Virus record (IMG/VR): IMGVR_UViG_2563366825_000024
Direction: 5' to 3' (one strand)
Source of the DNA: a virus
Lineage: Duplodnaviria > Heunggongvirae > Uroviricota > Caudoviricetes
Length of the DNA: 16,481 nt
The position numbers and the translations under genes are program-made. How positions within the stretch are numbered: position 1 is the first letter of the stretch; every line of letters starts with the position of its first letter. Positions 8,908-16,481 of this stretch are shown piece after piece. The notes below the pieces were generated by a model. That model saw nothing but the letters and a program-made list of their open reading frames with translations, did not search any database and had not been told where the DNA came from.

Positions 8908-8963
8908 ATCGGCTGAACCTCAGCAACCAGTTGACGGGGACTTTCGTCCCCGTCGCGGTTTTC

Positions 8964-9104
8964 CTACTGCTTACACTGTAAGAACGCCGCAAACTCCGCT
9001 CCCCACAAATTCAGCCGGAACTCACACAACGAGCCGTGTAACATCCAGATGGTGAAGATTACCGTCATACAAATTGTGACGGTGATGAGCGATTTTTGCG
9101 ACAT
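8964..9104 (-). CDS. Hok/Gef-family-like type I toxin, 46 aa small membrane protein (MSQKSLITVTICMTVIFTIWMLHGSLCEFRLNLWGAEFAAFLQCKQ)
   Basis: Not in the ORF track (below its size cutoff). ATG at 9102-9104 with AGGAGG (plus 9113-9118) 8 nt upstream; stop TAG at 8964-8966. N-terminal hydrophobic helix, then SLCE-x-R ... E-x-AAF-L-x-CK, which matches my recollection of the Hok/HokA/PndA pattern. Confidence 0.6.
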   Translation of the reverse strand: MSQKSLITVTICMTVIFTIWMLHGSLCEFRLNLWGAEFAAFLQCKQ

Positions 9105-9288
9105 AGCGCTTGCCTCCTGAGTGGAGAGGCGCTAACCTTCTACTTGCTTAAGGTATGATGGTTAGGGCCTCGGGTTAAACAAAATGTTTGACTCGGGGCC
9201 TTTCCACATCAGGCCTTCAGGTTCTCCCTCCAGCCATCAGCCGAAAGGCACCCGCGCATAATCTACGATTTTTGCCCTGCACGGGCAA

Positions 9289-9314
9289 CAAAAAACCCGC
9301 CATCACAGCGGGTT
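9289..9314 (-). terminator. Putative intrinsic terminator downstream of the Ail/Lom-like gene
   Basis: On the minus strand: AACCCGC-TGTGATG-GCGGGTT followed by TTTTTTG, about 23 nt after the TGA at 9337-9339. Confidence 0.5.
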
Positions 9315-9336
9315 ATGACATGTTGTCGGGTATTAC

Positions 9337-10074
9337 TCAGAATTTCAGGCCAATGCCTGCAAATAAACCATCAGTTTTCCAGTCGCCAGAGCCTGAGCTT
9401 TCATAAGTGACGTCCATAGTAACACTTTCATTGAAGTTAAATTGCGCGCCGACAGACCATGCAATAGACGTTTTTTTGGTGCTGTTACTTTCAGAAAAAC
9501 TACCGGCACCATGATTAAGATTGTCGTTAATTTTCAAGTCAGTGGTGACTTTTGCAACCCCCATGCCAGCCATTGCATACACACTGAGGTATTCGTTAAA
9601 CCGCCACGAAGGACCGGATAGTAGACTCCAGTAATTAGCCCTGATATCAGTTCTCGCTGAAGCTGCCGGGTTTTTTACCTCTCGTGATGGATCGGAAGGC
9701 TTAACATCAATAAATGCCTGCGCATTAGTCATGGAGCGCGCCCATGTAAAAGAGGCTATAACACCCAGTTCATCAGTTATCTCGTAACGATACCTGATGC
9801 TCATCCCCAGGGGGCTTTTGGCTGTGCCGTCATGCCCCCGGGCAATAGCATTTTCGTATTCAGCTGATGAATTAAAATGGTTTACGTTTACAACATTCCT
9901 GAACGTATCCCGGTTATAAACACCCGCGTCTCTAACAAAATCCTTCAGCCCGGGGAAGCGTATGTGTGCAAACCCGAGAGATACCGTACTATCGCCTGAT
10001 GCTGCATTTACCTGTGCAGTTAAGCAACTCATCACCAGAACTGCACACGCAAAAAATTTCATGATACTTTTCAT
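9337..10074 (-). CDS. Outer-membrane beta-barrel protein, Ail/Lom/PagC/OmpX-like (245 aa, longer than typical members)
   Basis: N-terminal signal peptide ending AQVNA-AS. Internal IRYRYE resembles the family signature; C-terminus GIGLKF ends in Phe as is typical for OMPs. True ATG at 10072-10074, second in-frame ATG 4 codons later. AT-rich. Confidence 0.65.
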   Translation of the reverse strand: MKSIMKFFACAVLVMSCLTAQVNAASGDSTVSLGFAHIRFPGLKDFVRDAGVYNRDTFRNVVNVNHFNSSAEYENAIARGHDGTAKSPLGMSIRYRYEITDELGVIASFTWARSMTNAQAFIDVKPSDPSREVKNPAASARTDIRANYWSLLSGPSWRFNEYLSVYAMAGMGVAKVTTDLKINDNLNHGAGSFSESNSTKKTSIAWSVGAQFNFNESVTMDVTYESSGSGDWKTDGLFAGIGLKF

Positions 10075-10153
10075 TTTAAGTATTTCTCTGAATTAAAGGA
10101 TGCGATGTCTGAAAGGAACGCTTTCGTTTTACACTATTAAAGTTTTTCTTACG

Positions 10154-10780
10154 CTAATCATATATTGAGGAATTAATAACCAGAACTTTATCTATATACG
10201 GCTTCCGAATATCCCATGTTGCACGACCGGAATAATGCTCACAGGAATATATTTTATTTCCTGTAGCCCCCGTTGATGTGGTGTAAATCGGTCGGTCATA
10301 AGGTGTACGCTGCCAGTTATAATACCCAACCAGTGCAGGCATAATTGCGCATGGATATCCAAGATCCTTCTCAAACTTGATATCAACTGGTATTAACTTC
10401 GCGTCAAGCAGCATCATTTCGCCATGGTAAATCATCTCACCCGACGGGTTATACATGGCAATACCATACTCAGAAGGTTGAGTAACCATATTCGCAAAAG
10501 CATAAACAGTCGTAACACCAGGATTCGTTCCCCTGACAATTTGATGAAGCCTTAAGGCATGATATCCATCAATCTGTTCATGTGTGTACATGACATCGGC
10601 CTTTTTCTCTGTTCTGATAAAGAAAAAACAACTTTTTCCTGACGGGATTGATGTTTTAAAAAAAGCCTTCTCAGTCGCCGGAATAGTTCCCTTATTGATC
10701 AGACACTGAGGCGTAAACCCCGGGCTTATCCACAAGCTGCCATCTGGTTTCGTAATGCTTAAACCATACATACAACTCAC
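10154..10780 (-). CDS. Hypothetical protein (208 aa from GTG 10780; 205 aa from first ATG at 10771)
   Basis: Track start is GTG, overlapping the TGA of the upstream 68-aa ORF. First ATG (10769-10771) has GGGGGTGA 5-6 nt upstream. Cys/Tyr-containing, no recognisable signal peptide or family. AT-rich. Confidence 0.5.
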   Translation of the reverse strand: MSCMYGLSITKPDGSLWISPGFTPQCLINKGTIPATEKAFFKTSIPSGKSCFFFIRTEKKADVMYTHEQIDGYHALRLHQIVRGTNPGVTTVYAFANMVTQPSEYGIAMYNPSGEMIYHGEMMLLDAKLIPVDIKFEKDLGYPCAIMPALVGYYNWQRTPYDRPIYTTSTGATGNKIYSCEHYSGRATWDIRKPYIDKVLVINSSIYD

Positions 10781-10959
10781 CCCCAGAATGTATAAATATA
10801 TGACCCCATCCCCTGCTCAAGATTCGACCACGTCACCGTATTGCCATTAATGGTTATCTTCGGTACTTTCCGGTCCTTAAATACATTATTCCACGGAAAT
10901 AATGAACAGACTGCCTGCAATGTTTTCCCTTCTGGTTTATTCGTATACGTTTTTGATCC

Positions 10960-10983
<24 letters not shown>
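10777..10983 (-). CDS. 68-aa ORF, possibly the 3' remnant of a gene interrupted by the adjacent IS3-family element
   Basis: ATG at 10981-10983 lies at the IS boundary. The same frame stays open upstream into the IS-derived sequence, so the native N-terminus may have been displaced. Stop overlaps the start of the 208-aa ORF. Confidence 0.4.
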
Positions 10984-13119
<2,136 letters not shown>

Positions 13120-14055
13120 ACAGCGTATTTTGCACAGGAGTCGCTGAAAAATACGCGTTAATCGAACAATGGCGACAACAATTTCCCATTGAAGCGATGT
13201 GTCAGGTATTTGGTGTATCCAGGAGCGGTTATTACAACTGGGTACAGCATGAACCCTCAGACAGAAAACAAAGTGATGAGCGGCTAAAACTGGAGATTAA
13301 GGTGGCACATATCCGCACTCGCGAAACATATGGAACCCGGCGGCTCCAGACGGAGCTGGCAGAGAATGGCATCATCGTTGGTCGTGACCAACTGGCACGT
13401 CTTCGTAAGGAGCTAAGGCTACGCTGTAAGCAGAAACGCAAGTTCAGAGCGACTACGAACTCGAACCACAATCTGCCAGTTGCGCCAAATCTGCTGAACC
13501 AGACGTTCGCTCCTACAGCACCAAATCAGGTCTGGGTGGCGGACCTGACGTATGTTGCCACACAGGAGGGATGGTTGTACCTCGCTGGCATCAAAGATGT
13601 TTATACGTGCGAAATTGTCGGCTACGCCATGGGAGAGCGCATGACAAAAGAGCTGACAGGTAAAGCCCTGTTTATGGCGCTCAGGAGCCAGCGCCCACCT
13701 GCCGGGCTAATCCACCACTCTGATCGAGGTTCACAGTACTGCGCATACGATTACCGGGTCATACAGGAGCAGTTTGGTCTGAAAACATCAATGTCGCGTA
13801 AAGGTAACTGTTACGACAACGCTCCGATGGAAAGCTTCTGGGGAACGCTGAAAAATGAGAGCCTGAGCCACTATCGTTTTAATAACCGGGATGAAGCCAT
13901 CTCAGTAATACGGGAATACATTGAGATTTTCTACAATCGTCAGCGTCGTCACTCTCGTCTGGGGAATATCTCCCCGGCAGCCTTCAGGGAAAAATATCAT
14001 CAGATGGCTGCTTAAAAAAAGAACAAATGGTAGTGTCCGCTATTGCCAGTACACC
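13120..14055 (+). mobile_element. Second, different IS3-family element, 5'-truncated (orfA replaced by IS30); right end approximate
   Basis: OrfB frame is open from the IS30 junction (NSVFCTGVAEKYALIEQWRQQFPIEAMCQVFGVSRSGYYNW...) to TAA at 14013-14015. DDE motifs HHSDRGSQYCA and GNCYDNAPMESFW. Sequence is distinct from the left-hand IS3-family copy. Confidence 0.7.
13197..14015 (+). pseudogene. IS3-family transposase OrfB segment (272 aa from internal ATG), no orfA present
   Basis: Track ORF. The upstream in-frame region lacks the OrfA frame and frameshift window, so a normal OrfAB transposase cannot be made. Confidence 0.7.
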
Positions 14056-15730
14056 TCAGAACCCCGTTCTCCAGCGGAGTGATTTTCACTCCTTTATCTG
14101 AAATATCAACATCCGGCAGCTCACCGGCAAGAGCCATTGCGTTAACTTCTTCCAGACGAGATGCAAGAAGCGTCATACGGGCCTGAAGATATGCATGGCA
14201 ATCAGTCTGCACAGCCAGTTGTAACTGGTCATTTTGTCGGGATTTATCAAATTCAGTGACCGGGATAAGATAATCATCAAAATTTCTGTAACGACGCGAC
14301 CCTTTTACCCAAATATCTCCGGAACGTAACGCCCCCTTGAGTTCATTCAGTACACAAAACTCATAGTATTTTCGATTGATGCCTGAAGGCGTTAATACCA
14401 GTTTTCGCCAGCTTTCAGGAATAAATGCTGTTGGCGCTGTAGGCGGAACGTTACGAAGCTGCTTACGGTATATTTCCCTTATAGTATCCAGTGCATCGCT
14501 GAGCGGCTGCGCCGCAGGTGTCGCTACAAACTGCAATGCTGACAACATTCGTGGAGCGTATTTTCGAAGTGTGCTGTATTTTTCGGTGATCAGGTGAAGA
14601 GGATCGAAATTACCTTTACGGGACAGCAACTGTGTTTCTTCCAGGCTGTTGACGAACTCCTGCCTGGGAATAACATCTTCTATCGCGGCCCAGGGATCTT
14701 CACCTGACTTTCTGGCATGCAGTAGCGCCTGACCGACAGTAACATATTGTCTTAACTTGCTCTGGATAAGTTTGCCTGTTAACTGAAGCCTCTCGGCTTG
14801 TGTGCGTTTTGCCTGGCTGAACAGACCGCCCATAATGCGTTCGTGTAGCTCGATAACTTCATCAGTCAATGTTGCTCTGGCTTCCTGAATGACACAAACC
14901 AGCGTAGCGTAACGTCTGATATCGGTGAATTTTGCCAGATCTCTGCTGCTCATTTTTCGGCCCTCACGCGCCAGTTTGAGTAATTTGTTCTGGTGAACGG
15001 AAAGCTCAATACCATCAGGTAATTCCAGCGCGGTGATAGAATTAAGTCGATCGATATGTTGCAGCACGTTTTTACCGTTAATTTTACCGGGAGGCTGAAG
15101 TAGCCACGCAAGTCGGGAAGGTTGTTCCCCTTCTGATATGAGCAGGCTGTCGAGTGCAGATCTATGCTGCTTTCCCAGTTGTGTCGTAAGTGCCGAAAAA
15201 ACAGATCTGTCAGCAAGTGTGACGGCTTCGGCAAGCGTCCGTTCGATCACATCAACCGACGGGAAAATAACATTATTGTTATGTAGCCAACTGAGCATTT
15301 CCTCCGCCAGAGTAAATCCTTTATCTGTTCGCATGGCATAGGAATGCAGATGCCGAATGCAGTCTTTTTGCAGAGTTCGGCTGAACGGAGATAATTTCAG
15401 GTAGCGATAAAGTTCAGCCAGATGCTCCCAGCGGGTTTGCTCTCTGGCTGCATATTCATGCCATAAATCGGGCTGAAGCTTCAGTCTTGAAGCAATTCTG
15501 GATACAACGCCACAGTGGGGAACATTATTTTTGTCCGGAACAAATCCAGGCCCACGCAGGTAACAGAGTAATACCGCAAAGCCCAGGCGATTAGCTGGAC
15601 GCCGGTGCTTATTAATGAGAGCAATATCTTTATCACAAAGAAAACACATTCTGGTCAGAATAATTTCATCATCTGGTATAACCAGCAGGCGAGCTTGCTC
15701 TTCACTACTCAGTATTTGTCGCCGTGGCAT
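14012..15730 (-). pseudogene. tnpA: Tn3-family transposase TnpA, N-terminal about 556 aa only; C-terminal catalytic region removed at the IS3-family junction
   Basis: Starts MPRRQILSSEEQARLLVIPDDE...ANRLGFAVLLCYLR, resembling Tn21/Tn3-family TnpA N-termini from memory. TnpA-like sequence stops near ...KITPLENG; the last 16 codons and the stop are encoded by the IS end sequence. Confidence 0.75.
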
Positions 15731-15890
15731 GAATGCTTCCCTCGTGTAAAGTTTTCATATGTTATGGATTTGTTGTGACCGAAAACGACCGGTTTCGGAC
15801 ATTGTTAAACAGATATATCCGAAAGTCAGCGAAATTACTTTCGGACATGCATTATAATATGTACACCTATTTCGTACAGAAGATCTCACT
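15731..15890. promoter_or_regulatory. res-like resolution site and divergent promoter region between tnpA and tnpR
   Basis: TTTCGGACAT occurs twice (15793-15802 and 15839-15848). Perfect 9-bp inverted repeat TCCGAAAGT/ACTTTCGGA (15818-15826 and 15837-15845) with 10-bp spacer; imperfect pair GACCGAAAAC/GTTTCGGAC around 15777-15800. Consensus-like TATAAT at 15853-15858, 33 nt upstream of the tnpR ATG. Confidence 0.6.
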
Positions 15891-16481
15891 ATGTCTCGAA
15901 TTTTTGCCTATTGTCGGGTTTCCACTCTGGAACAGACGACCGAAAATCAACGTCGGGAAATCGAAAGCGCGGGTTTTAACGTCAGACCCCAACGAATAAT
16001 CGAAGAACAAATTAGTGGCTCAGTAGCAACCAGTGAACGTCCTAGTTTTAACCGGTTGCTTGATCGTCTGGAAAGTGGCGATGTATTGATAGTCACAAAA
16101 CTGGATCGCCTCGGTCGTAATGCAATGGATATCAGGAAAACAGTGGAGCAACTGACCGAATCTGGCATCAGGGTGCATTGCCTGGCATTAGGTGGTGTTG
16201 ATCTGACCAGTCCGGCAGGAAAAATGACAATGCAAGTGATTTCAGCGGTCGCTGAATTTGAACGAGATCTTTTACTTGAACGAACTTATTCAGGGATAGC
16301 AAGAGCACGGGATGCAGGAAAACGTTTTGGTCGCCCACCGGTATTAAATGAAGAACAAAAACAGAAGGTACTCGAACGCATTAAGTCTGGGGCAAGTATA
16401 AGTGCTATTGCCAGGGAATTCCGAACCACACGGCAAACAATTCTGAGAGTTAGAGCGAAACAGCAAACTGTTACTGTATAG
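15891..16481 (+). CDS. tnpR: Serine recombinase, resolvase/invertase family (196 aa), probable transposon resolvase
   Basis: ATG at 15891, stop at 16479-16481. N-terminal catalytic motif YCRVSTLEQ, then LDRLGR and AEFER; C-terminal helix-turn-helix-like tail. Divergent from a Tn3-family tnpA across a res-like site. Confidence 0.8.

Follow-up and report, generated by a model that had tools for sequence, protein, structure and literature searches.

At the end of a 16,481-nt stretch of viral DNA (the window; IMG/VR record IMGVR_UViG_2563366825_000024, Caudoviricetes), positions 14012-16481 hold a shortened transposase gene (tnpA), a divergent resolvase gene (tnpR) and repeated half-sites between the two, which raises the question of which transposon left this segment behind and whether its recombination module could still work. 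We consider it likely, at a probability of roughly 0.78, that the segment is what remains, two thirds in all and on the tnpR side, of a cryptic transposon of 3.8 kb from the Tn3 family and of the Tn2501 type, which was inactivated by the insertion sequences (IS) IS600 and IS30 and whose resolution module is structurally complete. This reading is carried by the gene identities, the truncation, the architecture and conservation of the recombination sites and natural homology breaks at one of them, all of which were observed in the analysis. The element type is already in the literature and the same IS600-interrupted copy is already present in several sequenced plasmids; the Tn2501-like remnant is plasmid debris of an ordinary kind and no new system.

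The intact parent is found in plasmid pMOO-32 (locus L002), where it measures 3,815 bp and consists of two terminal inverted repeats (IR) and, between them, tnpA and tnpR reading away from a central resolution site (res), with no other genes (IR - tnpA <- res -> tnpR - IR). Members of the Tn3 family were recognised by terminal inverted repeats of about 38 bp (GGGG...TAAG) together with a 5-bp target duplication; in pMOO-32 the IR arms are 52 nt long, 94% complementary and start GGGGTCCGCTTGGAAAACGG...CACGCTAAGAC, and the element is flanked on both sides by the 5-bp duplication TATAG. The internal res with its cognate resolvase, a further trait of the family, is present in the window, which ends exactly with the tnpR stop codon. 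In pMOO-32 the right IR arm (L002 10418-10469) overlaps the tnpR stop codon (10421-10423), and in two sister plasmids, L001 and L003, this stop leads straight into the IR, so that only the innermost 6 bp of the right IR lie inside the window.

Compared with the parent, the window lacks the catalytic half of the transposase. Full-length TnpA of pMOO-32 has 994 aa, with the domain DDE_Tnp_Tn3 at residues 579-966, and the window protein is the same up to residue 557 save for K310T and W356R, before it runs into residues encoded by the end of IS600 (Table 1). The resulting 572-aa product aligns to positions 2-538 of the 954 positions of the NCBIfam model transpos_Tn3 (E 7e-162, above the model cutoff), and in the Pfam search the N-terminal DUF4158 is its sole domain; the DNA-binding N-terminal part is therefore retained and the DDE catalytic domain is gone. 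A first-pass annotation made from the sequence alone had described a tnpA reduced to its N-terminal half in a transposon unable to move itself, and had named a full-length tnpA in the true sequence as counterevidence; the truncation proved to be real in the window, with codons 1-557 of 994 kept and the DDE half absent. The same segment, 14012-16481, is 99.9% identical in several E. coli plasmids including pSTEC17_183-b and pED1a (megablast against plasmids).

Table 1 Features of the transposon remnant and of the adjoining insertion sequences, in window coordinates.
Feature	Position	Strand	Basis or remark
tnpA 5' part, 1672 nt, codons 1-557 of 994	14059-15730	-	NCBIfam, Pfam, residue-by-residue comparison
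Fused open reading frame (ORF), 572 aa: TnpA 1-557 + 15 residues from the IS600 end, then stop	14012-15730	-	ORF list, comparison
res site I, proposed crossover site, TGACCGAAAACG-AC-CGGTTTCGGACA, 12-2-12 inverted repeat	15776-15801		centre AC 15788-15789
res site II (accessory), TATCCGAAA-N14-TTTCGGACA, 9-14-9	15816-15847		half-site scan, conservation
res site III (accessory, by tnpR), two direct half-site-like motifs 13 bp apart	15857-15878		conservation; putative assignment
TATAAT, likely -10 of the tnpR promoter	15853-15858	+	between sites II and III, reaches two bases into site III
tnpR, small serine recombinase, 196 aa	15891-16481	+	Pfam Resolvase (E 6e-38) + HTH_7
Right IR, inner 6 bp	16476-16481	.	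remaining ~46 bp beyond the window end
IS600, right 941 bp, IS3 family, orfB 13197-14015	13118-14058	+	99.8% identity to annotated IS600 in pSTEC17_183-b; rve/HTH_21
IS30, 383-aa transposase at 11961-13112	11899-13117		cuts IS600 at 13117/13118

The assignment to the Tn2501 type follows a comparison of pSFO157 plasmids, in which a 'likely intact 3,815 bp transposon' at CP012499/CP012500 was named Tn2501 (PMC7175801). Both records are among the megablast plasmid matches, at 97.6% identity. The original Tn2501 is said to be a cryptic class II transposon within Tn951, reportedly from work by Michiels and Cornelis in 1984, 1987 and 1989, and was reportedly described as about 6.3 kb long, so that the 3,815-bp E. 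coli element is perhaps a shorter relative. Relatives at 74-81% nucleotide identity carry cargo 3' of tnpR, made up of genes for oxidative stress, chromate or arsenic, or lie beside lacI-lacZ, and a cargo-bearing or lac-adjacent arrangement has likewise been reported for Tn2502/Tn2503 and for Tn951/Tn2501 (PMC3316555). Tn2501 resembles the window element in that tnpA and tnpR diverge from an intervening res, as in Tn3, and in that the transposase and the IRs are of the Tn21 kind; compared with Tn2501 and with the arsenic-carrying Tn2502/Tn2503, the window copy differs by its IS600-cut tnpA, the missing left IR and the absence of cargo. ISEc63 was considered as a name for the element and discarded, since that name belongs to the gamma-delta transposase of plasmid F.

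The junction between tnpA and IS600 lies at 14058/14059, at the right terminus of IS600 (...CAGTACACCTCA). The IS600 part of the window is 99.8-99.9% identical to copies annotated as IS600 and encodes the orfB part, with the integrase core, of an orfAB-type transposase, while the left 323 bp of this copy are missing. In pSTEC17_183-b (L001) the 3' half of tnpA lies beyond IS600 and, in comparison with the uninterrupted L002, a 3-bp GAA duplication is seen, so that the first event was a simple IS600 insertion. As for IS30, its copy in plasmid pG8 is simply inserted and bounded by a 2-bp duplication (AC); in the window it has no target duplication and its left flank is unrelated. The comparison of these sequences indicates an IS30-associated recombination or deletion at the window locus, and a search of the whole window found no left part of IS600, no 3' half of tnpA and no transposon IR. 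In two steps, then, IS600 would have inserted at tnpA codon 557/558, and an IS30-associated rearrangement would subsequently have stripped the left part of IS600, the 3' half of tnpA and the left IR from the locus, leaving a copy that should be unable to move and, as it has one neighbouring IR at most, not mobilisable in trans either.

Two claims of the first-pass annotation have to be amended here. The DDE half had been thought to be replaced at the junction with an IS3-family element, of which the junction holds, IS600 belonging to that family, while the replacement in one step does not, given that two steps are involved. Mobilisation in trans had also been proposed, and complementation of a defective tnpA in trans is reported for Tn2502 (PMC3316555); for the window copy it is unsupported, because no left IR is present and the right IR extends into the window by 6 bp only. 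Both IRs are present in pSTEC17_183-b (NZ_CP075654.1), where the 5-bp flanks differ (TTACT at 12213-12217 versus ATAAA at 17297-17301) and the element therefore lacks a simple target duplication, which suggests an earlier rearrangement there, e.g., intramolecular transposition or exchange between copies.

The second half of the question concerns the resolution module, which survived this history. The region between the divergent tnpA and tnpR genes measures 160 bp and contains a res of 103 bp (15776-15878) with six TGTCCGAAA-type half-sites, which we propose to group into three subsites (Table 1). Measured from centre to centre, sites I and II are 43 bp apart (about 4 helical turns) and sites II and III 36 bp. 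The motif TTTCGGACAT occurs at 15793-15802 and again at 15839-15848, and a perfect 9-bp inverted repeat (TCCGAAAGT, 15818-15826; ACTTTCGGA, 15837-15845) lies within site II, while site III consists of ATATGTACA (15857-15865, degenerate) and TTTCGTACA (15870-15878). Paired inverted TTTCGGACA half-sites including the perfect repeat at 15818-15845, and a TATAAT overlapping the repeats, had been reported from the sequence before; both are present, the hexamer sharing the first two bases of site III, and the repeats agree with a res architecture of three subsites in the canonical order of the Tn3 family, the third of which had not been listed.

These motifs are concentrated in res. Allowing at most one mismatch on either strand, TGTCCGAAA has 5 matches in 15776-15878 compared with 3 in the other ~16.4 kb, and the palindrome CCGAAA-N(4-30)-TTTCGK has just two places in the window, 15779-15798 and 15819-15844, giving 4 matches on both strands against 0.15 expected (0 of 200 shuffles reached 4). 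The 28-bp pattern of gamma-delta style, CCGAAA-N10-TTTCGG, has no match in the window, the actual spacings being 8 and 14.

Conservation further supports the subsites. In a footprint alignment of the window with 11 related loci from Escherichia, Klebsiella, Enterobacter, Yersinia, Rouxiella, Pantoea, Erwinia and Vibrio, all three subsites are kept across the 11 relatives and the spacers are not, including the 14-bp spacer between sites I and II. In site II both arms and a central AGYGAAATT are conserved across the aligned loci. In site I the arms are conserved and the central dinucleotide varies: the 3.8-kb lineage of E. coli has AC, the relatives from Klebsiella, Yersinia, Rouxiella and Erwinia have GT, and loci L006, L011 and L013 have TT; if this centre is the cleavage overlap, the AC, GT and TT lineages would be mutually incompatible for resolvase exchange. 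Site III reads ATTCGGACA...TTTCGTACG in relatives, and in the 3.8-kb lineage of E. coli its first motif is degenerate. The stretch 15848-15860 was examined for a left half-site that would make site III an inverted repeat, but its positions are unconserved among the relatives, and the reading as direct repeats was preferred. Moreover, 8 of the 11 related loci retain TTATAAT, the others having TTATGAT (2) or TTGTAAT (1). According to published rules for res in Tn3-family elements, site III lies by tnpR and site I by tnpA, with promoter elements inside (PMC7157771, PMC12217951); the order of the window sites and the 43-bp distance between sites I and II fit these rules.

Evidence as to where recombination takes place comes from orphan res-tnpR loci, in which homology ends inside the left half of site I. 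Plasmid pCys-1 (L004) is 98.3% identical to the window rightward of site I and unrelated leftward, and in the same way pCAV1043-97 (L005) and its tnpA-bearing counterpart pKpN06-SIL (L007) share 98.5% identity over 4.3 kb rightward of site I and are unrelated to its left. The left half-sites of L004 and L005 differ and are still recognisable (TGTCCGAAATCG and CGTCCGAAACCG, compared with TGACCGAAA(A/C)CG). Such breaks are the pattern expected of resolvase exchange at site I between different res sites and, as far as can be judged from homology, support this site as the place of crossover.

Some of these loci show arrangements of their own. In pCys-1 (NZ_CP041299.1, ~3909-4761) a unit of ~853 bp is made up of IR - 62 bp - res - tnpR - IR without tnpA, its left IR being diverged (GGGGTCAGTTTGGAATTCGGAAAATAAACCATGTTAAGAC) and lying beside an IS110-family element, its right IR being of the window type; the breakpoint is also seen in other E. 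coli plasmids, and the unit could be a non-autonomous 'resolvase cassette' derived from a crossover at site I. On a K. pneumoniae IncFIB/HI1B plasmid (L006, NZ_CP034124.1, 998-4100), an annotated Tn3-family tnpA points toward res and its stop (…GCCTGA) abuts site I, giving an order (tnpA> res tnpR>) that is neither the Tn3 nor the Tn21 arrangement and whose type is matched by ~800 Klebsiella plasmid records. The left flank of the Pantoea locus L011 (NZ_CP143411.1) is the same as in L006, with no tnpA annotated, and tnpR is unannotated in both L006 and L011.

The recombinase itself was described as intact, which holds for its open, full-length ORF, equal in length to that of intact elements, and for the catalytic residues R9, S11, R73 and R76, all present in alignments to PDB structures and to 120 homologues; it does carry the substitution G52S. 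This change and A47T distinguish it from the intact pMOO-32 copy. Position 52 is glycine in 115 of the 120 homologues and serine in 5, four of which are 99% and one 92% identical, while A47T also occurs in 5 more distant homologues; among the 120 best cluster representatives listed, the highest identity to TnpR is 99% and none reaches 100%.

To which side of the serine recombinases TnpR belongs is less evident from the protein than from its context. Among solved structures the best match is the invertase Gin (3e-29, 105 bits), followed by gamma-delta resolvase (4e-24, 89 bits) and Tn3 resolvase (1.7e-23), and homologues bear the names 'DNA invertase' or 'PinR' in some databases. Furthermore, the 26-bp 12-2-12 layout of site I is typical of hix and gix sites. 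A resolvase subfamily close to the invertases is already known, to judge from the title of an ISXc5 paper cited in PMC12217951. Clustering of the recombinase with DNA invertases, together with repeats unlike any res architecture, had been named as a result that would speak against a res-resolvase pair; this does not apply, since the repeats form a res of three subsites, and the small edge of Gin is not decisive for a gene that has accessory sites and lies in IR-bounded Tn3-family elements with 5-bp duplications.

Comparison with known systems places the element between two types. Full-length TnpA is 55.8% identical to Tn21 TnpA (985 aa) versus 29% to gamma-delta TnpA, so that, with these two reference elements compared, TnpA and IR would put it in the Tn21 subgroup. 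The IRs of Tn21, Tn501 and Tn1721 are closely similar to those of the element (GGGGTC...GAAAACGGAAAATA...CACGCTAAG). IS5075, which targets Tn21-type IRs, sits inside the tnpA-side IR of the Klebsiella plasmid pKpN06-SIL (NZ_CP012994.1, ~325-1690), giving GGGGTCCGCTTGGAAAACGGAA and TTATCCCACGCTAAGAC. In contrast to the co-linear res-tnpR-tnpA order that is a trait of Tn21, Tn501 and Tn1721, with res upstream of tnpR, tnpA and tnpR are divergent here; because divergent members of the Tn21 subgroup such as TnSod9 exist (PMC7157771), gene order does not strictly define the subgroup, and the element can therefore be described as a Tn21-like transposase in a Tn3-like layout. Its TnpR is about equally distant from both references (~34% identity to gamma-delta and Tn21 resolvases, 33.9% for Tn21; the two references share 31% with each other), and the TGTCAGG-type half-sites of Tn21 are unlike the TGTCCGAAA type of the window.

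With Tn3 and gamma-delta (Tn1000) the element shares the divergent tnpA-res-tnpR order, three subsites with site I by tnpA and site III by tnpR, and promoter elements in res (PMC7157771), and its half-site TTTCGGAC recurs in plasmid F, where it forms the right half of gamma-delta site I. The two differ in detail: site I has 28 bp and an AT-rich TTATAA centre in Tn3/gamma-delta versus 26 bp (12-2-12) with centre AC in the window, site II has 34 bp versus 32 bp, the distance between sites I and II is about 53 bp versus 43 bp, and site III appears as a direct repeat, unlike the inverted site III of Tn3. Two further systems can be likened to the window module by description: the SGI1 res with its three boxes, a boxI centred on AC and a weakly symmetric boxIII (PMC12217951), and the ISXc5 resolvase, a transposon resolvase near the invertases in sequence according to a title cited in the same paper.

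By analogy with Tn3, gamma-delta and Tn21, a mode of action can be proposed that takes in binding by TnpR, the precise point of cleavage, control of tnpR by its own product and activity today. TnpR dimers would bind the three subsites of res; two directly repeated res copies would synapse through sites II and III; Ser11 would cut site I at its centre, the dinucleotide AC (15788-89), followed by strand exchange; and TnpR bound to sites II and III, which flank the TATAAT, would autorepress tnpR. Should a second matching res enter the replicon, the module could then resolve a cointegrate or delete or invert DNA. The first-pass annotation had spoken of 'resolution or inversion', which seems reasonable in principle, because the Tn2501 resolvase is reported to act on direct as well as inverted res, going by the title of a 1989 paper by Michiels & Cornelis (cited in PMC12217951 and PMC3316555), and because in vivo inversions by Tn3-family TnpR are discussed in PMC13367494.

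Several observations count against the reading of the segment as a Tn2501-type remnant with a complete module. The Tn2501 label is taken from PMC7175801. Compared with the 9-mer, the first of the two half-sites in site III is mismatched at 3 positions in the window lineage, and since the direct repeats of site III depart from the inverted layout of Tn3, the assignment of this site could be wrong. From the breaks in L004 and L005 the crossover can be located no more closely than to within ~10 bp, in the left half or the centre of site I. A scan of 15650-15950 for sigma-70 consensus promoters and terminators yielded none that passed and no full -35/-10 pair, so that promoter function for tnpR is one that we infer from the conserved TATAAT. 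Finally, G52S at a conserved glycine could impair TnpR.

Taking the last point further, the module might be a relic that is incompetent for recombination through G52S (together with A47T), through the degenerate half-site of site III or through both, which we regard as unlikely, though it is the alternative that has to be taken most seriously. G52 is the glycine of a conserved R-P-G motif ('drpgl' in the Gin alignment), serine there is confined to the closest of the 120 homologues (5 of 120, 4 of them at 99% identity), the first half-site of site III is mismatched as described, and the loss of res in a sister plasmid is taken as absence of purifying selection. On the other hand, all four catalytic residues are intact and A47T recurs in the 5 more distant homologues; Sin has a non-glycine residue at the position equivalent to G52; and the same site III is present in the duplication-flanked, intact pMOO-32 copy, which presumably transposed and was resolved normally. 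The surviving resolution module is probably still competent.

Competence is one matter and selection another. In a sister plasmid, pG8 (L003, NZ_CP060058.1, unnamed1), a 504-bp deletion at locus position 12596, corresponding to window 15495-15998 and also noted for G6/7, has taken away the 5' end of tnpA, res in its entirety and 108 nt at the start of tnpR, so that the recombinase ORF is reduced to 160 aa and lacks its N-terminal part, while plasmids of the pG8 type are 99.8-100% identical to window 11899-16481 on both sides of this deletion. Since a sister plasmid has deleted res, the module looks dispensable, and within the remnant it is most likely neutral debris under no evident selection.

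A domesticated function, in which res and tnpR were kept by selection for the resolution of plasmid multimers or cointegrates after transposition had been lost, is less probable still than incompetence. It would account for the tnpR ORF being open despite the destroyed tnpA, for orphan res-tnpR modules on large F-type, IncHI1B and other plasmids, and for the distribution of a tnpA-res-tnpR junction probe, of which at least 80% is covered in 336 of 1499 plasmid records, most being partial, with many of the partial matches listed beginning within res and continuing into tnpR; in SGI1, moreover, a Tn3-like resolution system has been shown to remove multimers (PMC12217951). Yet the sisters that are otherwise 99.8-100% identical have lost res and the 5' end of tnpR, the lineage has G52S at a conserved glycine, and the module lies amid nested IS elements in an accessory region, away from replication and partition genes. 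Fragmentation also looks random, because tnpA-only fragments are abundant as well: in PLSDB, 2034 records contain some fragment of the element and 186 at least 80% of it, with tnpA-only and res-tnpR-only pieces both occurring.

That the truncated TnpA together with TnpR and res might form a plasmid-borne unit of interference and resolution is a long shot by comparison. If true, the promoter-proximal TnpA part of 557 residues would occupy the IRs when a Tn2501-like element comes in and so serve as a dominant-negative or immunity-like factor, and TnpR would resolve cointegrates or multimers via the remaining res of the remnant.

The reading of tnpR as a Hin/Gin-type DNA invertase that governs an invertible segment through a crossover site, for which the Gin match, the site I layout, the database names and the reported activity of the Tn2501 resolvase on inverted res could be cited, has next to no chance and was rejected, because the window has a single site I with no inverted partner, nor any second dimer site, together with two accessory sites, because tnpR is always accompanied by these two extra conserved sites of putative binding, because intact copies sit by tnpA within IR-bounded, duplication-flanked Tn3-family transposons, and because the ~34% identity to gamma-delta and Tn21 resolvases was rated on a par with the 31% between those two.

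For a Tn2501-type remnant, the importance of these results beyond annotation is small and contains nothing unexpected for the Tn3 family. They do provide a nested scar of mobile elements dated in order, with a Tn2501-like element followed by IS600 and then IS30 and with fixed boundaries, and a sequence-level proposal for three res subsites and a crossover site, which automated annotation leaves blank. The surviving res is a potential hotspot of recombination at which res-hunting transposons might insert, and on the arrival of a related element in the plasmid it could partner in resolvase-mediated deletions, inversions or module swaps, which is relevant to tracing how the accessory regions of E. 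coli plasmids are reshuffled.

As to the surroundings, the left flank of IS30 (10983-11898) is a fragment of another IS3-family element (ORF 10991-11737 on the minus strand; rve/HTH_21), and the block 10983-14058 is also present in some E. coli chromosomes. No record covered at least 80% of the query when the whole window was compared with plasmids or 9000-16481 with E. coli genomes; since no single record spans it, the window is a mosaic by these comparisons. Leftward of the block, in 1-10982, the best plasmid matches are only ~90-92% identical and comprise segments with LPD38-domain, Ail/Lom, bacteriocin and Hok/Gef genes.

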